DNA from: Enterobacter phage phiEap-3
Length of the DNA: 64,000 bases
Direction: 5' to 3' (one strand)
Sequence record: KT321315.1
Part shown: piece by piece, positions 2,241 through 26,935 of the stretch
Numbering within the stretch: position 1 is the first letter of the stretch
Layout of the letters: every line of letters begins with the position of its first letter
Translations under genes and position numbers: made by a program
The notes under the pieces: generated by a model
What the model was told of the DNA's origin: nothing
The model's database searches: none
What the model saw: only the letters and a program-made list of their open reading frames with translations

Positions 2241-2523
2241 AATGCAAGAAAGATTTCACGTACTGTTCGATCTTTTCACGACATGTATCAACTGAGGTAC
2301 TTTCCGCAATTACGGCATGACATAACGCCTCACCGCCGACCCAGAAACTCATCATGTACTGAATATCACGACCTTCCATTTCTTTTTGATGCGCTTTGAT
2401 TCGATCGAAAGCGTTTTCGATTGTTTCAGTAGCAGTAAGCATTTCGGATTCCCCGTCAACCTCCGCCAGTTCCCCATCGATCATTTCGCTTTCGACTTCT
2501 TCCCAGTATACTATCGTTATCAT
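2239..2523 (-). CDS. hypothetical acidic protein (94 aa)
   Basis: ORF in the minus-strand array. Confidence 0.4.
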   Translation of the reverse strand: MITIVYWEEVESEMIDGELAEVDGESEMLTATETIENAFDRIKAHQKEMEGRDIQYMMSFWVGGEALCHAVIAESTSVDTCREKIEQYVKSFLH

Positions 2524-2538
2524 GCATTACCCCAGTGG

Positions 2539-3009
2539 TTAACCGTCGTAATCCCCGCCACAATTCACATCACCTTCAATGAACAGTTCGCGGTTATCAC
2601 GTAATAAATTATACTTTCTTTCGAGTTCAGGCCCGAACGCGTCGGCGTCGTCATACCAGGAATAGTTATAACATCCGGCTTCATCGTCATAATCTGGTTC
2701 ATCGCCGCGTTCATTGAAGTGAACAATTTTGATATCGTCCATCCCCAGTTCTTTCAACTTATCCCAGATATACGAAATCTCAACGCTATGGGAACCGAAC
2801 GCTTCCAGTGAGATCGTACCGTCGCTATCGACTTGAGGAACACCCCATTTCGAACGAGTATCATCGGTGATCATATCTATTAATGACTCAATATTATTCT
2901 CACCGTAGATATCAGCAACTTCCTTTTCTTTACCAGGACGAACCAGCCCGATCCCGATAATAAAGCTACTGCTTGAGCTATTGCTCACAAACCCAGAACG
3001 AATTTTCAT
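2539..3009 (-). CDS. hypothetical protein, paralog A of the MKIRSGFVSNSSSSSF N-terminal family (156 aa)
   Basis: Its first 17 codons are nearly identical at nucleotide level to ORF 6392..6907. The remainder is unrelated and acidic. Confidence 0.5.
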   Translation of the reverse strand: MKIRSGFVSNSSSSSFIIGIGLVRPGKEKEVADIYGENNIESLIDMITDDTRSKWGVPQVDSDGTISLEAFGSHSVEISYIWDKLKELGMDDIKIVHFNERGDEPDYDDEAGCYNYSWYDDADAFGPELERKYNLLRDNRELFIEGDVNCGGDYDG

Positions 3010-3160
3010 CGCATCACCATATTACCAATCATGAATAGAGGGATTAACGCGAAGACGATACCCCATAGAATGACCTTATCTTCACGACGGTCGCACCCAT
3101 GATAGATAACACCTCCAGCGAAAACCAATACGACAACTGAAACGAACGCGAATAAAGAAA

Positions 3161-3811
3161 TCATTTGCGGGTATCCATTCTCATAGAAACTTCTTTCAGG
3201 ATCTTATTCAGATCGTGAAGCGCATCTTTTACGTTACCTTCATTATAGGTAAGCATATCCTGGTAAAGCCCTTTCAAGCAACGATTGATAACATATGCTT
3301 TTTCAGAAGGTAACATTGTACCAGAACGATTGTAATCTCTGAAAATGTCCATCATCGTGCCGTTGTTGCCAGATAATGACGGGTTGAAGTTAACCATACC
3401 GGACATCAAACTATCAATATACACAACGGTTGTGTTATCAGAACGATACGCGCCACCAACTTTAAACCAGTTGCTGAACACATACGGAGATTCCCGCACT
3501 TCGCTCAAATCGGTTCCGATTTCATCGATGTTTACACGAATGTTGTTAAAATACACCGATTCATCAATAGAACCAGGACGCCATACGATAGCACCGTTGT
3601 TATTTTTGAATCCGACTACATCAACCTGCCAGCCGTTATCTGTTAACCGGACATCATCAACGACGATGAAATCAGGTAGCTGTGAATGAAAGCCGATGTT
3701 TTCAGGACGGGAATTACGAAACCCATCACGATTGGAGAAATAAAGGATGTCACCTTGATTCAGTTCGCATATATTCATAAGATTTTTAAAGTCCAATTCA
3801 AGTAATTCCAC
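3161..3811 (-). CDS. hypothetical protein (216 aa) immediately downstream of the VWA gene
   Basis: Long ORF; its true start may be an internal Met (MNICELN...). Confidence 0.45.
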   Translation of the reverse strand: MELLELDFKNLMNICELNQGDILYFSNRDGFRNSRPENIGFHSQLPDFIVVDDVRLTDNGWQVDVVGFKNNNGAIVWRPGSIDESVYFNNIRVNIDEIGTDLSEVRESPYVFSNWFKVGGAYRSDNTTVVYIDSLMSGMVNFNPSLSGNNGTMMDIFRDYNRSGTMLPSEKAYVINRCLKGLYQDMLTYNEGNVKDALHDLNKILKEVSMRMDTRK

Positions 3812-3847
3812 AAGTCACCTCAAAGCCCCCTTTCGGGGGCAAATTCA

Positions 3848-6064
3848 TTAGAGTTTGACTTCTTTTTCTTCCAGAACGATTGTGCAATCAAATTTCACAT
3901 CTTTCCAGAATTCCGCTGCAACGATATCTGTTGCGGTAACGCTTACGCTGGTTTCTTCGAAATCCAGATCCGCAAACCATGCGTGTCCGACTACAATACC
4001 GTACATTACACGACTCAGGCGATTATTAAGGGCGCGAACCTCTTTAATAGTTTCCTTTGTCTGCTTATCAAGATACTCGATCAGGTCATTCTTGTCAAGC
4101 GCTTCGATCTCTTTAGATACGGTATCGTAAGCCCACAGAATGATCAGGTCACCATTGTTGAGTTTCTTTTTACCTTCGGCGCGTTTTGCAACGGTAGCAG
4201 CAACAGCCGGAAGTGATGAAACGCCTTTGATCTTCACGTTCAGTTCTTTCGACATGTAAACATCAGTCGATTCTGTGCGCTCAACCTTCGGAGAGAAGCC
4301 GTAATCACGGATCCCTTGCTCAGACAACCATTCACCAGCCGCCTCGCCAAAACGCTGTTTAAGCCCTTCTGCGTTGCGTAAACCAATCGCGTTATCACGG
4401 AAGAACTTCATTACTTTCTGACGGCCTTTCAGGATTTCCAGACGGACGTTATCAGCAACAAATTCCTTACCAGAAATACCGCGAGTCATCGAACGGTTAA
4501 CCAGAGGCAGAGAGGTAAAGTCAACCAGTACGGACATACGGTCTTCACCAATTTTAGCCAGCGGTTTGATAGTCAGACCAGAAGCACGTAAGTTTTTCAG
4601 AGTCGGAATATCGGTTTCCAGCGGAAGTACCTTAACGTTCACGATACCATCTTTAACAATGGTAAAGTTACGCACTTGTTTGGTTTCTACTTTTTCCGGC
4701 AATCCAAACTCTTTTTGTTTGCTTTCCGGAATAGTTACGTAACCTTGCAGATCCGTATTGATGGAAATGTTCGGACGGGAACTGTTACCCACCAGGTGTT
4801 TCACTGCAACTTTCGTTGTGGTTTGGGTAAATTCCGGTTTCCATACTTCGTGCGCTACCAGTTGAGCCGCCAGTGCTTTTCGTTCTTCCGGAGTAGAAGC
4901 ATTTGCAATCTGTTCTGACAGTTTATCCAGTGTATCATCATCTTTCTGGACAGTCTGACGGCCTGTACGATTGTACGCCCAGTGTTCAGAAGACAGGTCG
5001 ATCACTGTGTCGGTTTCTGCCAGCAGTTCGAGAGCATCAACCAGAGTAAACGCGTTTTCATCAGGAACCATGTTGTAATCAACACCATCCATCAGACGTT
5101 TAGCCGGATCAACAACCGCTTCGGAGATCATATCTTTAGCGTTTGAATAATCCTGTTTGGTAAAGCAGTTATCGTATGCTTTAATCAGACGCACATCACC
5201 CAGCTTTTTCAGAACTTTCCATGCCAGATCTGGATTCATGGTATGAAGCGCATGATACAGAACCACATACAGAACCTGTTCACCTTCTGCTGTTGCCGGA
5301 TCGAAGCCGTCAACGTCATTGATCGCGTTTTCACCCAGCGCCCAAATGTTTTTGATATGTTCCGGAACCAGAACAACACCATTTGCAGCATTCAGGACGT
5401 ACACACGGCCTTCATCCAGGTAGATCGCATGGGTTGCATCGCCAACTTTGACTTCAACACGTGCTGAGGTTTGCGCGGTAATGATTTCATCAAATGCAGG
5501 TACATACGCATCAAACCCTTCAACGAATTTGTGTAATGCGTTGGTTGCTTCCGCCATTTTTTCCAGCAGAGGACGGTTTACATAATAACCATATTCCAGG
5601 AAAGCAATGTTGTTAAACGTCAACGGCAGAGTAGAACACGCTTTCAGGATATCATCAGTACGCCAGCAGTTATCATAACCATCAGTCAGGAAGATCAGAC
5701 TGTTCAGATTGCCATTATCCGCTTGCAGATCGGTAGCGACTTCAACCGCCAGTTGCAGAGGTTCAACGAAGCCAGTACATCCGGTCGGACGCAGATAACG
5801 ATCGATAGCATCATTGATTTTGCTCAGGTCGGATACAGAGCTAACCTTTTCGCCCACGAATACAGAACCGAACTGACCACGGCTGGAGAAATACAGAATA
5901 GATACGGTATCATCCTGTTTAACCAGCGTTGCCAGGTTGTTTTTCAGGTGCTGACGAATGCGCGGGAGTTCGTTATACATCGATCCGGATACGTCACAAA
6001 CAAAAACGTGGTTAGTCGGGGTTGGTTTGGCTACGGCGTTTTTGAATTCAATGTTAGTGATCAT
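3848..6064 (-). CDS. von Willebrand factor A (VWA) domain protein, 738 aa
   Basis: N-terminal MIDAS motif (VFVCDVSGSM ... T ... FLTDGYDN), typical of a vWA fold. The C-terminal ~550 aa has no motif I recognise. Confidence 0.75.
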   Translation of the reverse strand: MITNIEFKNAVAKPTPTNHVFVCDVSGSMYNELPRIRQHLKNNLATLVKQDDTVSILYFSSRGQFGSVFVGEKVSSVSDLSKINDAIDRYLRPTGCTGFVEPLQLAVEVATDLQADNGNLNSLIFLTDGYDNCWRTDDILKACSTLPLTFNNIAFLEYGYYVNRPLLEKMAEATNALHKFVEGFDAYVPAFDEIITAQTSARVEVKVGDATHAIYLDEGRVYVLNAANGVVLVPEHIKNIWALGENAINDVDGFDPATAEGEQVLYVVLYHALHTMNPDLAWKVLKKLGDVRLIKAYDNCFTKQDYSNAKDMISEAVVDPAKRLMDGVDYNMVPDENAFTLVDALELLAETDTVIDLSSEHWAYNRTGRQTVQKDDDTLDKLSEQIANASTPEERKALAAQLVAHEVWKPEFTQTTTKVAVKHLVGNSSRPNISINTDLQGYVTIPESKQKEFGLPEKVETKQVRNFTIVKDGIVNVKVLPLETDIPTLKNLRASGLTIKPLAKIGEDRMSVLVDFTSLPLVNRSMTRGISGKEFVADNVRLEILKGRQKVMKFFRDNAIGLRNAEGLKQRFGEAAGEWLSEQGIRDYGFSPKVERTESTDVYMSKELNVKIKGVSSLPAVAATVAKRAEGKKKLNNGDLIILWAYDTVSKEIEALDKNDLIEYLDKQTKETIKEVRALNNRLSRVMYGIVVGHAWFADLDFEETSVSVTATDIVAAEFWKDVKFDCTIVLEEKEVKL

Positions 6065-6071
6065 AATTTTC

Positions 6072-6392
6072 TCATTTATAGGTAAATTTGATTAAAATTT
6101 CGTTTACTTTTTTGCTAATAATATCTAATGCATCATCGCATCCAAACTTACTACTCAACAATGAAACAAAATCATCCATCGTTGTTGTTTGAGACTCGCC
6201 AACGTCAAAAGACAGAGCGTAGGCAACAGGATTTTTAATCCTTACGATTTGAATAGTATACTCATTCAGGTCAAACCGTTCAAGATATTTTCGCAAAGAA
6301 AATAAATCAATCGGTACTGGTAGAGTTTGACTAAACGTTATTTCTTCCCCCAGTTGATAGGGGGGCATTTTTACACAGATTTCGTATTCCAT
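6072..6392 (-). CDS. hypothetical protein (106 aa)
   Basis: ORF; its stop overlaps the start of the upstream gene (6392). Confidence 0.4.
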   Translation of the reverse strand: MEYEICVKMPPYQLGEEITFSQTLPVPIDLFSLRKYLERFDLNEYTIQIVRIKNPVAYALSFDVGESQTTTMDDFVSLLSSKFGCDDALDIISKKVNEILIKFTYK

Positions 6393-6907
6393 CAGTGATG
6401 ACTCGTCATAGTGTGTTCCAGGTTACGGAAAATTTGCCCGTGTTCAAGCTGGGATTGAAATTCTCCGCATTCATCAGAGTAAGTAAATTCATAAATGAAT
6501 ACACCGTTCTGATTGCCAAATTTAGCGTTGTACTCTTCATACAGCCACATCTTGATCAGAGCGTCTTTCTCTTCTGTTTCCAGATCATACCAGTCACGCC
6601 CATCATAAGCAAGTGCAATTTGAGGATTAGACCGATATCGAGTTTCGGCGTTATCTTCGGTTTCCCATTCATAACGCTTATCATCATAGTATGATTCGAA
6701 ACCATCACCCATATGACCGCCCAGGTCGCGGTGTACTTGCTGTACAACTTCTTCCGCTGTCGGGCAAGTCATCCAGCTATAACCACAGTTAGGAACACAA
6801 TCACCCATCATTTCGCGGAGATTGTTGATATCAGTCGGATCCTTCGGGAACCGTACAATAAAGCTACTTGATGAACTATTGCTCACAAAACCAGAACGGA
6901 TTTTCAT
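6392..6907 (-). CDS. hypothetical protein, paralog B of the MKIRSGFVSNSSSSSF N-terminal family (171 aa)
   Basis: Shares an N-terminal 16-17 aa (about 46 of 50 nt identical) with ORF 2539..3009. Good RBS (gaggaaatcaaATG). Confidence 0.5.
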   Translation of the reverse strand: MKIRSGFVSNSSSSSFIVRFPKDPTDINNLREMMGDCVPNCGYSWMTCPTAEEVVQQVHRDLGGHMGDGFESYYDDKRYEWETEDNAETRYRSNPQIALAYDGRDWYDLETEEKDALIKMWLYEEYNAKFGNQNGVFIYEFTYSDECGEFQSQLEHGQIFRNLEHTMTSHH

Positions 6908-7146
6908 TTGATTTCCTCAAATTCAAAAGCGGTGAAATGTTTTCTTTCGTCATACCCAACAGTACAACGATGCGTTTGCTTTCCGGTAAACCCGTCAAAC
7001 ACAGTTACACAATAGTAATGCAACGACGGAAGCGGTGTATGTTTAATGTATTTGATCGCGACGTTCAGGTCAACAGTAGAACATACACAATCAGACGTTT
7101 GCTCAAAACGGTCATCAAAAATCAACTCAATACTATAGATGTTCAT
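6904..7146 (-). CDS. hypothetical protein (about 80 aa from internal Met MNIYSIEL)
   Basis: The ORF track starts at 7212 but overlaps the upstream gene. The internal ATG at 7146 gives an ATGA junction. Confidence 0.35.
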   Translation of the reverse strand: MNIYSIELIFDDRFEQTSDCVCSTVDLNVAIKYIKHTPLPSLHYYCVTVFDGFTGKQTHRCTVGYDERKHFTAFEFEEIK

Positions 7147-7382
7147 GATTTTCCCTTTGTTTCTGATTTCAGGACGATATTGCTGTAAGGATCTTTTGCT
7201 ACCAGTTCCCACAGATCGCCGGGATGTTCCCCGCTACGATATACGGATGAACGAACGATTTCGTTAAACTTGCTTAGGGCTTCGTCGATATCGTCATACC
7301 CACGTTTGAGGGGCTTACGATTGTGACGAATGAAAAACATTTCTTTGGTTTTCTCCCAACGTTCAGCATTTTTAACCTTCAT
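7143..7382 (-). CDS. hypothetical protein (79 aa)
   Basis: ORF, translationally coupled. Confidence 0.4.
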   Translation of the reverse strand: MKVKNAERWEKTKEMFFIRHNRKPLKRGYDDIDEALSKFNEIVRSSVYRSGEHPGDLWELVAKDPYSNIVLKSETKGKS

Positions 7383-7656
7383 CTTTCACTTCCTTCATGT
7401 TTTTCATAACTTCTTCAAAAGTTACGGGAATTTCGTTGTACTGTTGAGATTCATCATCCCATACATCGCGATGCCCGAATGTTGAACTTTTTGCAATGAG
7501 TTTTTCATTTTCCCATACATCAATAGTAACATGATCACCAAGATAAGGGAAATTAGGAACTTTATTCAGCGCATCAACGCAGTTTTGCAATGATTCAGAA
7601 ACATGGGCAATTTCAGTGAATTCATAATCAGCACTATAAGAAGCTACGTAAATCAT
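7372..7656 (-). CDS. hypothetical protein (about 94 aa)
   Basis: ORF. The track start at 7662 is a GTG; an ATG at 7656 is more likely. Confidence 0.4.
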   Translation of the reverse strand: MIYVASYSADYEFTEIAHVSESLQNCVDALNKVPNFPYLGDHVTIDVWENEKLIAKSSTFGHRDVWDDESQQYNEIPVTFEEVMKNMKEVKDEG

Positions 7657-7823
7657 CACCACCCCCTAACGATGCTAACCAGCAGTAAACCCAGGATCCA
7701 GAACACAGCAACCGCACAAATACGGGCCATTACTACATTTCCGCGACTAGTCCACTCCGCACTAAGAAACAAGAGGACAAACGTTAACGCGTATAAAACC
7801 ATTTCAATAACTTCGGTAATCAT
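7656..7823 (-). CDS. small hydrophobic membrane protein (55 aa, two predicted TM helices)
   Basis: Not in the ORF track (under 60 aa). The hand translation, MITEVIEMVLYALTFVLLFLSAEW...FWILGLLLVSIVRGW, follows a terminator and an RBS (gaggtttatATG). Confidence 0.3.
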   Translation of the reverse strand: MITEVIEMVLYALTFVLLFLSAEWTSRGNVVMARICAVAVFWILGLLLVSIVRGW

Positions 7824-9377: not shown

Positions 9378-9613
9378 TCCGTTTCAATTCCGTGTTTGTA
9401 TGCGTCAACGCCCAGAGGGGTGATCACTAAACACATATCAGTATTTTTCGTTGGTGAACTAAACGCCATTGATGCGTAACCTTTTTGAATCAGGGAATCA
9501 CGCCCTGATTTACTGGGAACATCGTTGAAATCTAAATCCAACATTTTTGACGAGTATCCGTAAAGTTTACACAAAACATCAATCTCAGCGCCGGATAATT
9601 TCGGATATGTCAT
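9368..9613 (-). CDS. hypothetical protein (81 aa)
   Basis: ORF overlapping both neighbours. Confidence 0.45.
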   Translation of the reverse strand: MTYPKLSGAEIDVLCKLYGYSSKMLDLDFNDVPSKSGRDSLIQKGYASMAFSSPTKNTDMCLVITPLGVDAYKHGIETEWR

Positions 9614-10617
9614 TTGTAATACCTCACAACATGTTCAGAATACACACGTTCAATGAAATCATTCCAGAAATCGCGATCAACTTCTTTCGGATAACCAGAT
9701 ACAGCCGCCAGCTTTTCAACTTCACACATCGTTGATTCTAGCGCCTCTTGTACGGTTGCGAAAGGAACACCGCCAGCTTTAACCATTTTCAAAAATGCGC
9801 TGTCCGGAAGAGGATACACAATATCACCTTCTTTGAAAATCTGGATCAATTGCATACCACCGCGCAAAGCATGAGAAAGAGCTTTCCAGTCGATCCCGTT
9901 GTTGGCTTCTGCTTGCCGTGCGCGTTCCCCGTATTCATCCCAGAGTTTATACACGGATTTCTTCATTTCCGCTACGGTGATCGTAGACTGGAATTTACGC
10001 CCCAGAACTTCATAAAATTCCTGACAACCTGATTTCATTGTTTTGTCTGTAACGAATCGACAAAACTCGTTGGTCGGGAATCGGTTAGAAATCTCACCAA
10101 CTTTGATGCGCTTGCCGTAGTTAGATTCATCCACGTTACCCAGCAATGATGTACCATACCAGCAATCAGGAATCGTCTGTAACACATCGACAACTTCACG
10201 CAGTGCAGCCAGGCGAGAGCCTTTAACGCCATACTTCGCCGCTTGCTTACGAACATAACCAAACAGGCCAGTGAGTTCCGTAGTGTAGAAGCGTGAACGG
10301 TTAGCGCGGAGATATTGCCAGATATCAGAGTTAGCGATCAGTTTGCTATCATCTGCATGAAGCATATCAATCGCCACGGTGTCACCATCACATGCGAGGC
10401 TGATAAACTTTTGCAGACTGTAAATCTGACGATCTACGTCATTAACACCGTTCTTTGAGTTTTTATCGCCAGTTGATGTATCAATAGACTTCTTCGCAGT
10501 GCCTAACAGGATTTCGCGAGGATGAGGGAGATAGATCCCTTTGTAGTCTTTATCGCTTGTTGGTGTTTCCAGTCCGTACAGGTGAGAACCGAATACGGTT
10601 TCCATAATCATTTTCAT
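9610..10617 (-). CDS. predicted nucleotidyltransferase (Pol-beta superfamily; resembles the RlaP/PF10127-type NTase)
   Basis: N-terminal GSHLYGLETPTSDKDYKGIY fits the NTase-fold G[SG]x9-13 Dx[DE] motif, as in the PF10127 family. 335 aa. Confidence 0.55.
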   Translation of the reverse strand: MKMIMETVFGSHLYGLETPTSDKDYKGIYLPHPREILLGTAKKSIDTSTGDKNSKNGVNDVDRQIYSLQKFISLACDGDTVAIDMLHADDSKLIANSDIWQYLRANRSRFYTTELTGLFGYVRKQAAKYGVKGSRLAALREVVDVLQTIPDCWYGTSLLGNVDESNYGKRIKVGEISNRFPTNEFCRFVTDKTMKSGCQEFYEVLGRKFQSTITVAEMKKSVYKLWDEYGERARQAEANNGIDWKALSHALRGGMQLIQIFKEGDIVYPLPDSAFLKMVKAGGVPFATVQEALESTMCEVEKLAAVSGYPKEVDRDFWNDFIERVYSEHVVRYYK

Positions 10618-11826: not shown

Positions 11827-12092
11827 TTCCTCACAGTTTCAAATTCTTCATCAGATTTCCAATACACGTTAAAATTACGACAATCATGTTCGGCTGTCAA
11901 CGTATATTTTTCATTTGTTTTCTCATCGGTGATAACCATAGTTTCATTATCGATTGAGTTAACACCATAAACGAAAACATTCTCACCGCGTTTGTTTAAA
12001 AACGCATCACCCTTTTCAATCAACTGCCAACAGGCAACAGGCAACCCACCTGGACAAATCGGACGGGTAACAAGACAATAGGGATGTTTCAT
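11823..12092 (-). CDS. hypothetical Cys-containing protein (about 90 aa from MKHPYCLV)
   Basis: The track start (12122) reads into a PeSL hairpin. The internal ATG at 12092 sits after the conserved leader. Confidence 0.4.
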   Translation of the reverse strand: MKHPYCLVTRPICPGGLPVACWQLIEKGDAFLNKRGENVFVYGVNSIDNETMVITDEKTNEKYTLTAEHDCRNFNVYWKSDEEFETVRK

Positions 12093-12160
12093 AATAAGCC
12101 TCTTTTGTTTCTGTAGGCCCAATATAGCAAAAGCCCCTGACCTAAGTCAAGGGCTTTGTT
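12093..12160 (-). repeat. PeSL-like cassette (hairpin aagcccctgacctaagtcaagggctt + TGCTATATTGG + leader)
   Basis: Same hairpin family and extended -10 as at 2165..2240. Confidence 0.6.
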
Positions 12161-13231
12161 TTAAATTCCGGTAAATGCTACGATGATTTGATAATGATCA
12201 TCGAAGAATAGATCCCGCATCGCGATCACTTCGTGCATCGGTAGCCAGAACGCGTCTGCTGCATCATCAGAGCCGCCCATAATACGAGGCAATGAACCAT
12301 CGTTATTAGGTTCGAGCTTGATATATTGTGCTACAGTCGGTTTTGAGAAGTACACCGAACGTTTCGGATGATCGAACAGCATCGAATTACGGATAGAACC
12401 ACGAATAACCTTTTCTGGTACTTTAATTCGTACTTCTTCCAGCAATTCACGGATCGCACAATCAAGGAACGTTTCGTTACCGTTTTTGTGTCCACCAGGA
12501 AGCGCTAACGCATCTTTACCAGGCGCAAACTTACGACGGATTACTAACACGTGGTTATTACATACGACCACTGAGTCAGCCGTGCAACAGTTCAGAGAAT
12601 CCGGATACGGATATTTTTTGAACTTGTCAATCTCTCGTTGCCAGTGTGCATCTTCATGGGACAAACGCTGGAATTCTTTTGTTTGTGTCCATTCATCGAT
12701 AAAGGAAACCGTAGTGCTAGGCGCATATTTTAACAAATCTTCGTCCCAGCCTTCATGGTGTTCCCAGATAATTTTGCGTAAATTGGTCGAGGACAGATCC
12801 TGATCTCCAACCTTCACAGGTTCAACCGGAATATGATTCCATCCGAATGCTTTAAGCCAGTAAGAATCTTTGTCTTTTTCGTATCCGACGATCGCAATTC
12901 GATCATTTCGAGTTTCATCGATTGCCATACGAACGCGGGATTTCCATTTTTCCTCGTTATAGAGGTAATCTGGAATGTGCGCGAATTTGATTCTGGCTGC
13001 ATCTTCAACATCAAGTTTGCAGATAGACCAGCGAGTGATCATTGCTTGACGCTGTTTAGCGGTCAATGGGTTTAATGTGTTCGGATATGCATAAGCAGAA
13101 CCGATCAGAATGTAAACCGTATTAGCAACAGCAAGGGCTTCCCTTACCATTTTCTCATGACCATAGTGAAAAGGTTGAAAACGTCCAATTACTACAGCTT
13201 TATCATATTTGTGTTTCATAACGTGCTCCAC
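12161..13231 (-). CDS. bifunctional NMN adenylyltransferase / Nudix hydrolase (NadM-Nudix, NatV-like)
   Basis: N-terminus VVIGRFQPFHYGH (the HxGH NMNAT motif of NadM/NadR type). C-terminal Nudix box GGHKNGNETFLDCAIRELLEEV. Confidence 0.8.
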   Translation of the reverse strand: MEHVMKHKYDKAVVIGRFQPFHYGHEKMVREALAVANTVYILIGSAYAYPNTLNPLTAKQRQAMITRWSICKLDVEDAARIKFAHIPDYLYNEEKWKSRVRMAIDETRNDRIAIVGYEKDKDSYWLKAFGWNHIPVEPVKVGDQDLSSTNLRKIIWEHHEGWDEDLLKYAPSTTVSFIDEWTQTKEFQRLSHEDAHWQREIDKFKKYPYPDSLNCCTADSVVVCNNHVLVIRRKFAPGKDALALPGGHKNGNETFLDCAIRELLEEVRIKVPEKVIRGSIRNSMLFDHPKRSVYFSKPTVAQYIKLEPNNDGSLPRIMGGSDDAADAFWLPMHEVIAMRDLFFDDHYQIIVAFTGI

Positions 13232-13357
13232 GTTTAAAGGTTAATCATAAAACAGACGCAATTATCAACACACCAAACAATCCACCAATGAAACCAAAGA
13301 ATAGTGAAATGAGTATAGTCAGTACGATCTGTTTTATGTTCATTATAGTATTCTCGT

Positions 13358-13383
13358 TTTAGATGTCAAGCCCCCAAAGAGGG
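13358..13383 (-). terminator. GC hairpin (agccccc-aaag-agggggct) after the SPFH gene
   Basis: Hairpin adjacent to the stop at 13396. The T-run on the transcribed strand is weak. Confidence 0.35.
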
Positions 13384-13395
13384 GGCTTTAAAACA

Positions 13396-14322
13396 TTATT
13401 TACGAGAATCGAAAATCACTTTACCAGCATAATCCGAACCCATTACAGTTTGAGGTACGCCACCTTTATAGCGGGTAGAGTAGTTCATCTGTACATCCAG
13501 TTCTTTCCAGCGGATCATTTCCGGCGTAATGGTGCGTTGCAGGGCGGCGTTGGCTTCTGCTTCTTTCTTCGCTGCATACAGACGGGCATCAGCATCACGT
13601 TCGTTAGCGATTGCAGCGTTTTCACGCGCCTGACGATCGGCTTCCGCTTGTTTTACTGCTTGTAGTGAAGTTTGTTCTACTTTTTGCAGTTCAGCTTTAG
13701 CAGCGTTAACCTGTTCTTCGCGGATCTTCGTGTTAGTTACCTGTTCCATGATAACTTCCGGCAGGGTGATATCCTGCAAGAATACCTGTTTCACAGTGTA
13801 ACCGTAAGGCCGCGCATAATCTTCTACTTCCTGCTGAATCGCAATTTGCAGTTGGTTTTGGATCTTCGCATCAAACAGGTCTTGCGCTTTCGGTACGGAT
13901 TTACCAAATTCGCGAACAGTGGAAAGCAGTTTTTCAGTTACATACTTATCCAGTGCCTGATCCTGATTACCCGCGTTGATACGGTTGATCGGTGCTTTGC
14001 TACCGTCGAATTGCAGCATTACGGTCATATCCACAGTGGATTTAAATTTATCCTGGGACGGAACCTGTAATTTGTCGAACTTCATCGCGATGTCTTTGGT
14101 GCTGAACGTATCAAACGTTGCCAGCGGGTTTACAATGTGGAAACCGGGTAGTACGGGTTTCGGTGATACTTTACCCATGAAGGTTTCAGTTTTAACCGTA
14201 CCGTCTTGCACAATGGTATACATGTTAGGCACTAACCACAGTGCTGCAACTACGCCCAGAGCGATCAGAGAGGTTTTCTTCGGGTTGTTCACGATAGTGT
14301 TTAAGTTCATCATAATTTCCAT
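13396..14322 (-). CDS. SPFH / band-7 (prohibitin/HflC-like) membrane-anchored protein
   Basis: N-terminal TM segment (SLIALGVVAALWLV). SPFH-like core. Long Ala/Glu/Gln/Lys-rich coiled coil (AKAELQKVEQTSLQAVKQAEADRQARENAAIANERDADARLYAAKKEAEANAA). Confidence 0.75.
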   Translation of the reverse strand: MEIMMNLNTIVNNPKKTSLIALGVVAALWLVPNMYTIVQDGTVKTETFMGKVSPKPVLPGFHIVNPLATFDTFSTKDIAMKFDKLQVPSQDKFKSTVDMTVMLQFDGSKAPINRINAGNQDQALDKYVTEKLLSTVREFGKSVPKAQDLFDAKIQNQLQIAIQQEVEDYARPYGYTVKQVFLQDITLPEVIMEQVTNTKIREEQVNAAKAELQKVEQTSLQAVKQAEADRQARENAAIANERDADARLYAAKKEAEANAALQRTITPEMIRWKELDVQMNYSTRYKGGVPQTVMGSDYAGKVIFDSRK

Positions 14323-25395: not shown

Positions 25396-25676
25396 TTCTC
25401 GCCATCTGCTTTAATCTGTAAATTAGCCAGGAATGAAAACATAATATCACAGTTGCTTTCGATTAGATAGCGATATTTTAATACCGTGCTCACTTCTTCC
25501 GGTTCTACCGTAGTAACCTTAATGTCTTTAGCACAAAGGTCATAATCGTTACAGTACCCGTCAATATCCATAAGCGTTTTGTTTTCATCTGGATATAATT
25601 CCAGCAGGTATGCGTCTTCATCAGTTACCAGCGCAACTATCCGGTTGCGCCTTGTGTTATAGGTTAAGATCTTCAT
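25380..25676 (-). CDS. hypothetical protein (98 aa)
   Basis: ORF. Confidence 0.4.
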   Translation of the reverse strand: MKILTYNTRRNRIVALVTDEDAYLLELYPDENKTLMDIDGYCNDYDLCAKDIKVTTVEPEEVSTVLKYRYLIESNCDIMFSFLANLQIKADGENWGCI

Positions 25677-26935
25677 TTCAATTCCACCGCGTACACATCC
25701 AATTCAGGGGCTTTGTGTACGCGCATATCTTTACCACATACAGCATAAGCCGGACAGTTACGGCAACCGTTATGATCCTTGTTACCAATCAATTCCTGAC
25801 GGAATTTCTTAGTTTTCGGATGTTCCCAGATATCTTTGATAAAGTCACTGGCTTCCAGGACGTTAAGCCCTTCTGACCATCCACCCTCGACCCAACCTTC
25901 GGTAAAGGAACAAGGGAAGAATTCACCCTTCTCGTTGATGTACGAGCTAAACATAGTAGCTTCGCAATCTTCCGCATACTGTTTGTACTGTTCAAAATTT
26001 TCATGCCCTTCCATAGCCTCTACAAAGGCCGGAGCGGAACAAGAATCAAAACCGAACCCTACACCAGATTCAAGGCAATACTCTACCAGAGCTTTATACT
26101 GCTCGCGTGTAACGGTATCCCAGTTCTTCCCACGGCCTTTTTGTTTCAGACCCAGGAATACGATCGCGTTAACTTGTTTCAAACGCGGATCATTCTTCAC
26201 AGCATCAACCACGTTAAACGCATCATCATAGGTTTTAGAGCTAACCATGAAATGAAGGTTGATTTGCTGTTGTCCGGCTTCCGCCAGATTAGCCACTGAA
26301 TTAAATGCGACATCGAATCCAGCATGTTTGTATACTGATACCGCAACAGCCCCAGCAACAGCCGCTAAACGCGCTGCAACGTCTTTTGATACATCAGCAA
26401 TGGTAAGGTTAGGCACAATGCCTTTAGAACGCGCATAGGCCATCATATCAAACATATCAGGGTTTGTTTGTCCCTGTGCATCAGCACCGAGGGCGCATTG
26501 TGTTAACCAGGGCATTTTATCAATGATAGATTTGAATGTATCAAGATCCATATTGAAGCCGTTAGGGTTATTAGACTTGTAGCAGAAACCGCAAAGTTTA
26601 CCAGCGGGGCCATTGCATTTAGTTGTGATCTCAATATCGAGAATTTCAGGGAATGGGGCATAGGTAGGATCAGTTTCGAACGATGTTCCCCAGCGAGCAA
26701 ACTCACCAGTTTTAACGTTGAAATTGTAGTTATACCACTTAGAGCGAGCGTAACGGATATCACCATCTTGATAGATGAACAGGGTAGGAGCTTTCAGAAC
26801 AGTTTGTGCGTTATTCATAATATAATTCTCAAAATCTAACATGGGATTGGAAGACAGCGCGAGCGAGACTTTCATTATCAAACGGTATTGATTGGTGTTG
26901 CCCTTTGCTATCAATGTTAACGCGCCAAAATTCAC
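25673..26935 (-). CDS. Cys-rich radical-SAM/SPASM-like protein (tentative), 420 aa
   Basis: N-terminal Cys cluster ITTKCNGPAGKLCGFCY (non-canonical CxnCxxC spacing). C-terminal Cys clusters CSAPAF...CEATMF...CSF...CRNCPAYAVC, as in SPASM/twitch domains. Confidence 0.45.
   Translation of the reverse strand: MNFGALTLIAKGNTNQYRLIMKVSLALSSNPMLDFENYIMNNAQTVLKAPTLFIYQDGDIRYARSKWYNYNFNVKTGEFARWGTSFETDPTYAPFPEILDIEITTKCNGPAGKLCGFCYKSNNPNGFNMDLDTFKSIIDKMPWLTQCALGADAQGQTNPDMFDMMAYARSKGIVPNLTIADVSKDVAARLAAVAGAVAVSVYKHAGFDVAFNSVANLAEAGQQQINLHFMVSSKTYDDAFNVVDAVKNDPRLKQVNAIVFLGLKQKGRGKNWDTVTREQYKALVEYCLESGVGFGFDSCSAPAFVEAMEGHENFEQYKQYAEDCEATMFSSYINEKGEFFPCSFTEGWVEGGWSEGLNVLEASDFIKDIWEHPKTKKFRQELIGNKDHNGCRNCPAYAVCGKDMRVHKAPELDVYAVELK

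Follow-up and report, generated by a model that had tools for sequence, protein, structure and literature searches.

A family of phage proteins that share an invariant N-terminal peptide, and are otherwise unrelated to one another, is probably a set of enzyme-modified protein targets served by a single radical S-adenosylmethionine (SAM) enzyme. This reading comes from sequence comparison and was developed from a 64,000-nucleotide stretch of Enterobacter phage phiEap-3 (KT321315.1; the whole stretch is referred to as the window), in which two members of the family, orf156 and orf171, lie on either side of a gene for a VWA-domain protein. An initial annotation of the window had picked out this locus for the N-terminus that the two proteins share. 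The enzyme proposed as their common maturase is encoded in the same window. The features on which the argument depends are as follows.

2539–3009, minus strand: orf156, 156 aa, isoelectric point (pI) 4.2, with the N-terminal 16-mer; open reading frame (ORF) with translation
2962–3009, minus strand: codons 1–16 of orf156, MKIRSGFVSNSSSSSF, proposed to be recognised and modified by the radical SAM enzyme
6392–6907, minus strand: orf171, 171 aa, pI 4.6, with the N-terminal 16-mer
6860–6907, minus strand: codons 1–16 of orf171, MKIRSGFVSNSSSSSF
25673–26875, minus strand: radical SAM/SPASM(twitch)-type enzyme, proposed maturase of orf156 and orf171

The shared N-terminal peptide

Residues 1–17 of orf156 and orf171 are identical (MKIRSGFVSNSSSSSFI), as the initial annotation had stated, and its count of identical nucleotides in this block (46 of 50) is close enough to the 45 of 51 measured here. 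Four codons of the two tags differ (ATT/ATC, GGG/GGT, AGC/AGT and AGC/TCA), all of them synonymously. The pI values bear out the description of both proteins as acidic. The remainder of the two proteins had been called unrelated, and this too was borne out: BLASTP shows no similarity beyond the tag and, when the two ortholog families were compared with hhalign, only residues 1–40 aligned. Homology beyond the tag, being negative by both methods, was rejected. A hidden Markov model (HMM) of the motif scores 37.8 bits for orf156, 37.2 bits for orf171 and at most 4.9 bits elsewhere in a six-frame translation of the window, so the pair is no chance match. Nor is it an assembly artefact, as over 100 genomes of the Slopekvirus, Karamvirus and RB43-like groups, sequenced independently, have the same arrangement.

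In orthologs of orf156 with as little as 31% overall identity residues 1–16 are unchanged, and the same holds for the first 16 residues of orf171 in orthologs down to about 37%. Two metagenomic contigs carry seven and eight consecutive small genes whose products all start MKIR(S/N/T)GFVSNSSSSSF and then diverge. The consensus of the family, starting at Met1, is M-K-(I/V/T)-R-x-G-F-V-S-N-S-S-S-(S/T)-S-F. A constrained N-terminal tag on different cargo, one of the possibilities raised in the initial annotation, agrees well with these data: the 16-mer is kept in orthologs of 31–40% identity and heads at least 71 C-terminal families that are not linked by BLAST. Searching other phages for the motif, as had been suggested, found the 16-mer far beyond T4-like genomes.

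Positional conservation was assessed on 305 N-termini collected with the HMM at loci anchored on the enzyme gene (see below). R4, S11 and S12 are present in all 305, N10 in 304, S9 in 299, F7 in 298, K2 in 297 and G6 in 296, and V8 is nearly invariant. Positions 3, 5, 13 and 14 are variable, and S13, S14 and F16 accept conservative change. The distance of the motif from Met1 is fixed in 303 of 319 motif ORFs from a separate set of 120 loci.

All six serine codons (AGY and TCN) occur at each Ser position among 248 unique genes, which implies selection on the peptide and not on DNA or RNA. The nucleotide identity of the motif has a mean of 75% for paralogs within a genome and 68% between genomes, and at the 75th to 95th percentile the within-genome pairs reach 83–96%. 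At 88% the pair in the window lies in the ordinary within-genome range and is, therefore, unremarkable. The Ser-codon identity of within-genome pairs is 0.41, compared with 0.33 expected. The six-codon usage and the ordinary identity of the window pair both speak against the recent gene conversion or DNA-level conservation that had first been proposed, and the codon evidence also counts against a translational-regulatory RNA element.

Some genomes depart from the consensus in a concerted manner. At locus L188 all four paralogs carry a G6S+S9A variant, MK.RQSFVANSSSSSF (12070–14000), which is found almost nowhere else, and at locus L158 K3 is present in four of four paralogs. Such concerted variation is expected if all copies in a genome co-evolve with one partner. 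The L188 enzyme has four departures at conserved columns (median 1), which is suggestive only of a compensatory change. The double variant of L188 is a natural experiment on the tag positions that the enzyme tolerates.

The radical SAM enzyme and its linkage to the tag

An exact-pattern scan of IMG/VR gave at least 120 stretches on contigs of 7.7–459 kb. The 120 listed, to which all statements below on motif-anchored loci refer, contain the 319 motif ORFs mentioned above (median 134 aa), with up to eight copies per locus. When the same-strand neighbours were clustered, one family dominated, that of an enzyme about 350 aa long whose motif is C..CxxC-YK; it is present at 38 loci and often lies 0–50 bp from the array. 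When these array enzymes were used as tblastn queries, the enzyme of the window was found (E 1e-62, 35–41% identity), on the same strand as orf156 and orf171.

In a reciprocal test, an alignment of 29 enzymes was used to collect 80 further IMG/VR loci whose enzymes are 38–53% identical to that of the window. Motif genes were present within 10 kb of the enzyme gene in 74 of the 80, and L188, with its variant motif, brings this to 75. The 305 N-termini found by HMM at these loci are all on the enzyme strand, with a median of four per locus and a maximum of 11; 253 of them are downstream of the enzyme, and in 44 of the 74 loci the nearest lies within 1 kb downstream. Every other gene family (protease, transporter, methyltransferase, etc.) is limited to 11 of the 80 loci or fewer. 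After the enzyme, the commonest neighbours are a metallophosphatase, an RNA ligase and a dUTPase (9–11 loci), which are probably genomic background. The phyletic distributions also match: of 50,697 cultured phage records, 172 have orf156 and 172 have the enzyme, in the same genera and with counts per genus that differ by no more than two. In Vibrio phage D479 a single 24-kb stretch holds five motif genes together with the enzyme. Outside phage contigs the system is essentially absent.

Membership of the enzyme in the radical SAM superfamily follows from its fold, a cysteine triad and partial NCBIfam matches. An AlphaFold2 model, with a predicted local distance difference test score (pLDDT) of 94.3 and a predicted template modelling score of 0.91, has the radical SAM TIM-barrel core fold. 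The closest structures are those of SPASM enzymes, SuiB and SkfB being closer than anSME. Three cysteines (C60, C68 and C71 in the numbering of a 373-aa query) and a following Y-K are invariant in alignments of 29 and 53 homologues; the last two cysteines are always spaced CxxC, and the first spacing ranges from x3 to about x20 across the family. The NCBIfam matches are to radical SAM maturase, SPASM and twitch models (E 1.7e-7 to TIGR04317), no curated cut-off of that collection being reached. Residues 277–348 match Pfam SPASM at 26.5 bits (cut-off 21.5). Four C-terminal cysteines (C252, C277, C295 and C347, same numbering) are also invariant, and this number fits a single, fully ligated auxiliary cluster of the twitch type better than the seven-Cys, two-cluster SPASM arrangement. 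The core is preceded by a four-stranded, all-beta N-terminal domain (strands 6–35), an extension that is conserved in the family with the signature YNYxFNxxxGxFxRWG. No Pfam domain of the RiPP recognition element type (RiPP, peptide made by the ribosome and modified after translation) was detected in the enzyme. Of its 1,404 homologues, the named ones bear the labels radical SAM, SPASM-domain or hypothetical protein. The start of the gene is ambiguous: the frame is open to 26935, a 99%-identical 400-aa database protein points to 26875, and a further Met is found at 26818.

Size and diversity of the tagged family

A 45-position profile, made from the 16-mer and the next 29 residues of both families, was run against a library of 1.84 billion proteins. 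It matched 855 cluster representatives at E ≤ 1e-10 and 18,561 at E ≤ 1e-3; of the latter the top 150 were inspected, nearly all of which carry the motif at residue 1, and the weak tail may hold low-complexity false positives. With motif proteins as queries, tblastn against cultured phages has little sensitivity, since masking removes the Ser run and the C-terminal parts are divergent. Tagged proteins are about 80–400 aa long (median about 130) and occur mainly on large myovirus-sized and jumbo contigs. Their median pI is 4.7, with 81% below 5.5, and 14% of members have at least two CxxC pairs.

Once the tag was removed, 232 unique proteins fell into 71 clusters without BLAST links, and hhalign without the first 20 residues linked one of the 136 pairs among the 17 largest clusters. 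A "hydrophobic strand + S/D-D/E-x-G" element and short Gly/His-rich C-terminal ends recur among the C-terminal parts; these might represent a minimal shared core, which could not be demonstrated. Pfam gave no match for 114 family representatives, and for the ten longest members the sole match was a single DUF4325 domain. Among the PHROGs, most members are recognised solely via phrog_7397, the PHROG of orf171. No usable match to orf156 or orf171 was found in Pfam, NCBIfam, PADLOC or PDB sequence profiles.

The commonest C-terminal class is that of orf171. It has the signature F.YSD.DG-(5)-(M/L)EHG.IFRN..H...S(H/N)H, which ends exactly at the C-terminus, and a variable helical insert of 60–150 residues in mid-protein. 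The arrangement of its Asp, Glu and His residues resembles a site for a metal or ligand near the N-terminal strand. Members of the orf156 class end ...G(G/A)G(Y/R)(D/N)G. In the AlphaFold2 model of orf171 (pLDDT 83.6) residues 1–10 form an unstructured tail and residues 13–20 one of three strands, the other two being C-terminal. A search of the PDB and BFVD with this model gave no structural relative.

In 185,579 prokaryotic species genomes the motif pattern occurs 31 times, nearly always on contigs of metagenome-assembled genomes (MAGs). Motif genes (L213–L243) were seen on contigs of 16–249 kb binned into Nanoarchaeota, Heimdallarchaeota, Promethearchaeota, Bathyarchaeia, Patescibacteria and Omnitrophota MAGs; these contigs are either mis-binned phage DNA or viruses of those hosts. 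The sole match in an isolate assembly is L216 (NZ_JBHSCL010000010.1, 178,077 bp), deposited under the name Flagellimonas marina CGMCC 1.15774. The 8 kb sampled from it are syntenic with the window (orf94, orf156, orf216, VWA, orf106, orf171, orf79; 43–91% amino acid and about 80% nucleotide identity). Its length matches that of a Slopek/Karam-like T4-type phage genome, and a phage present by contamination or co-culture is a more probable source than Flagellimonas.

Some database proteins (P0074, P0076, P0096 and P0061) contain the 16-mer twice, at residue 1 and internally, and look like adjacent array genes joined by fusion in gene calling, stop-codon loss or duplication. The arrays are surrounded by auxiliary genes typical of large phages. 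Directly upstream of the array at L004 (32–1744) is an NAD synthetase-like gene (PP-loop SGGIDS), and at L002 (1814–4623) an RNA ligase gene and a SAM-lyase-like gene are upstream. No description of the motif proteins, or of a phage system of radical SAM enzyme and targets, was found in the literature, no NCBIfam or Pfam model covers the motif proteins, and the KP15/KP27 genome paper mentions neither the radical SAM enzyme nor the VWA protein.

Proposed maturation and comparison with known systems

In the proposed mechanism the enzyme would bind the tail that every family member exposes at its N-terminus, and a 5'-deoxyadenosyl radical would bring about a post-translational modification of the tail. 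The unstructured residues 1–10 in the predicted orf171 model suggest that the tail is accessible to the enzyme. The reaction site may lie within the core R4–S12 (R4..G6-F7-V8-S9-N10-S11-S12), as the strictly invariant residues fall there and positions 13, 14 and 16 vary. A single enzyme would in this way be responsible for the maturation of an entire group of early proteins that diversify rapidly and are taken to be its substrates rather than its partners.

The residue modified and the chemistry are not deducible from sequence, and three candidates may be put forward by analogy. The first, following anSME and BtrN, would be oxidation of a Ser C-beta to formylglycine; the second, following SuiB, a Phe7-x-Ser9 cyclophane or other cross-link; the third, following EpeE, an epimerisation. 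An early-type genomic region, small size, acidity and paralog expansion would fit a role as host-takeover or anti-defence effectors. The chances are about even that enzyme and targets form a two-component phage system in which a radical-derived modification (Ser aldehyde, cross-link or D-residue) acts as a "licence" or warhead on an arsenal of effectors.

The nearest parallels are the maturases of RiPPs (SuiB-streptide, SkfB, CteB, PqqE-PqqA), which are likewise radical SAM/SPASM enzymes with co-encoded targets. In those systems the targets are short peptides, whereas here they are folded proteins of dozens of unrelated families, up to 11 different ones in a genome being served by one enzyme. 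Unlike a RiPP leader, the tag begins at Met1 and runs into a predicted core beta-strand, so that it would not be removable, and no protease or exporter gene is linked at the 80 enzyme loci. With protein-sized, unrelated targets, a fixed tag and neither protease nor exporter, this is not a RiPP system in the strict sense. Comparison with anSME and its sulfatases, and with BtrN, shows further differences: the 16-mer does not contain the (C/S)-x-(P/A)-x-R motif, the targets share no catalytic domain, and no sulfatase Pfam match was obtained for the 114 representatives and ten longest members.

Several families of radical SAM targets have been defined in silico, among them SCIFF, FxSxx-COOH/FxsB and the His-Xaa-Ser systems. 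The logic was the same as here, in that nothing but a short invariant motif defines the family encoded next to a radical SAM/SPASM gene, and F7-V8-S9 of the 16-mer has the form of the F-x-S cyclophane motif. In contrast to those families the present motif is N-terminal, not C-terminal or repeated, and its hosts are phages; moreover, their NCBIfam models match no target and reach no cut-off on the enzyme.

A number of points weigh against the assignment of the tagged proteins as substrates of a radical SAM enzyme. The enzyme of the window does not match Pfam Radical_SAM (PF04055), its relatives scoring 20–24 bits against a cut-off of 29.5, and its C-x8-C-x2-C has a non-canonical first spacing (canonical CxxxCxxC); the variable spacing and the N-terminal extension may explain the Pfam result. 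In the phiEap-3 lineage the enzyme gene is about 19–24 kb from both target genes and not adjacent to them, and in five of the 80 enzyme loci no motif gene lies within 10 kb. The concerted tag variants could also have come from gene conversion, and the size of the family depends in part on the weak tail of the profile search. Folded targets of 80–400 aa with a motif that is no cleavable leader are unlike classical RiPP precursors. Having neither the anSME signature (C/S-x-P/A-x-R) nor a Cys for thioether chemistry, the motif allows no known reaction to be transferred to it. The modification itself is inferred from genomic context.

Alternative explanations

The 16-mer could instead be a docking peptide that binds the enzyme and stays unmodified, the C-terminal domains acting as adaptors that bring host proteins, nucleic acids or metabolites to it in the manner of F-box proteins. 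The genomic linkage and concerted variation already described fit this too, the extreme diversity of the C-terminal parts would suit a set of recognition modules, and the predicted all-beta N-terminal domain of the enzyme could hold a peptide by strand addition. Leader and docking peptides of known radical SAM systems, however, tolerate far more substitution, and the absolute invariance of N10-S11-S12 looks like that of an active-site substrate. Exchangeable protein adaptors are without precedent among known radical SAM/SPASM enzymes, the nearest structural relatives of which all act on the co-encoded peptide or protein itself. Docking without modification is considered unlikely.

The tag could also serve in targeting or stability, as a capsid sorting signal, a degron or an anti-degron, with the enzyme merely co-inherited. 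In T4-type phages a conserved N-terminal capsid-targeting sequence is found on diverse internal proteins of hyperplastic loci. These internal proteins (IPI-III, Alt) resemble the present family in having a short N-terminal tag on diverse small proteins, variable regions and turnover of paralogs, and both the fixed N-terminal position and the occurrence on large myovirus-sized and jumbo contigs are in keeping with such a role. The tag sequence differs from theirs, however, the gene it travels with is that of a radical SAM enzyme rather than a prohead protease, and it occurs in phages far beyond the T4 type. Inspection of the sequences after the tag showed no acidic cleavage motif of the prohead-protease type, and cleavage would probably unfold the protein, as residues 13–20 are predicted to form a core strand. 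No portal, capsid or protease gene is linked at the 80 enzyme loci, and the sole gene that is linked, the radical SAM gene in 75 of 80, would be left without an explanation, as would the phyletic match. A targeting tag is judged to be quite improbable.

It is very unlikely that R4-x-G6-F7-V8 is a glycyl-radical site, with the enzyme as activase for Gly6. The motif R-x-G-F-V is one residue shorter than the glycyl-radical fingerprint R-V-x-G-(F/W/Y) and N-terminal rather than C-terminal, Gly6 is replaced in nine of the 305 N-termini, and neither orf156 and orf171 nor the 114 representatives match Pfam Gly_radical.

The initial annotation had raised the idea of a module made up of the VWA protein and small tagged partners. 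In such a module the tagged proteins would be partners or substrates of the VWA protein, perhaps with their Ser-rich or acidic parts at the metal ion-dependent adhesion site (MIDAS). The genes concerned are:

3848–6064, minus strand: VWA-domain protein, 738 aa, Pfam VWA_2 and VWA; phrog_2426 (unknown function)
6072–6392, minus strand: orf106, between orf171 and the VWA gene; phrog_7677
3161–3811, minus strand: orf216, between the VWA gene and orf156; phrog_7309 (unknown function)
3006–3164, minus strand: orf52, hydrophobic, between the VWA gene and orf156; phrog_7160 (unknown function)

The vWA/MIDAS domain itself was found as described, residues 20–175 matching Pfam VWA_2 at 29.2 bits (cut-off 27) and VWA at 26.4 bits (cut-off 23.8), and MIDAS-type residues can be read in the translation: DVSGS (DxSxS), the Thr in PTGCTG and the Asp in LTDGYD. 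The remaining approximately 560 residues gave no match in Pfam, NCBIfam or PDB sequences. The gene order orf171-orf106-VWA-orf216-orf52-orf156 is conserved in Slopek-, Karam- and RB43-like phages, as a module would require. Against this, VWA homologues occur in 505 phage records (172 for the enzyme and for orf156), most of them without enzyme and orf156. Vi01-like Ackermannviridae have full-length homologues of 45–49% identity, phages of Rhizobium and Bacillus have more distant ones, and the neighbourhood of the Vi01 copy has no motif gene and no other gene in common with the phiEap-3 locus. Among the motif-anchored loci a VWA gene lies near motif genes only in eight Slopek/Karam-like ones, and the motif arrays examined outside the Slopek/Karam/RB43 lineage have no VWA neighbour. 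This distribution largely refutes the proposed module, which is scarcely credible as an explanation of the tag; judged by sequence, the VWA gene is an independent, lineage-specific neighbour (Slopek/Karam/RB43) that would stand outside the system.

An origin at the DNA level, either from recent gene conversion or recombination where modules join or from an RNA or translation-initiation element, is the least probable of all and as primary cause is ruled out by the codon evidence: the 45/51 nt identity that ends abruptly and the slightly greater likeness of within-genome pairs would suit it, and a conserved 48-nt block could favour cassette shuffling as a side effect, but the substitutions are synonymous only, AGY/TCN switches need two changes, and the peptide is invariant in phages of very different sequence composition.

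The locus and its other genes

The phage is T4-type, of the Slopekvirus kind. The locus forms part of a run of small minus-strand genes, functionally unassigned, that adjoins plus-strand baseplate genes. Over region 2400–7700 the window shares 97–99% identity with vB_KpnM_Lemur_ER36, 05F and Matisse, and 109 phage records span 80% or more of this region. Most Slopekvirus relatives cover 96% of the region, split in two pieces, the window and vB_KpnM_Lemur_ER36 being longer by about 230 bases. The gene sizes of L001, when compared, suggest a place for these in the group of small ORFs immediately upstream of orf171 (orf102/orf79, about 6900–7400). Homologues of orf216 were found only in the eight Slopek/Karam-like loci among the motif-anchored ones, and those of orf106 are likewise confined to Slopek/Karam-like loci. 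Nothing in Pfam, PHROG or the neighbour clustering ties orf216 or orf52 to the tag and enzyme.

Some deposited genomes (L001, PP889462.1) name orf156 a "head-tail adaptor" and the VWA protein a "minor tail protein". The former does match phrog_132 ("head-tail adaptor") at E 6.5e-9. No Pfam connector family is found for it at E ≤ 1, and among the 114 family proteins phrog_132 is matched only by the Slopek-type orf156 members. As neither label has Pfam support and both genes are in a minus-strand, non-structural block, the labels have likely been over-propagated.

At 9610–10617 (minus strand) the window encodes a predicted 335-aa nucleotidyltransferase whose N-terminal sequence, by eye and unaligned, appears to resemble that of a cluster of 345-aa neighbours from seven motif-anchored loci of other phages. 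This recurrence is weak.

Conclusions

If orf156 and orf171 are indeed targets of the radical SAM enzyme, hundreds to thousands of families of small ORFans in T4-type and jumbo phages would become recognisable by a 16-residue N-terminus and one enzyme. Radical SAM/SPASM maturation, which acts on short peptides and on a small number of cellular proteins, would then also include a viral system with many substrates, and this would be the first RiPP-like chemistry on full-size viral effector proteins; new radical chemistry on a Ser/Asn-rich sequence would be probable. The tag and enzyme could be of use as a portable tool for protein modification. In therapeutic phages of Klebsiella, Enterobacter and Cronobacter (Slopekvirus, Karamvirus) this would concern early genes that are at present annotated as hypothetical or, wrongly, as structural, and knockout of the single enzyme should then disable the whole set of effectors.

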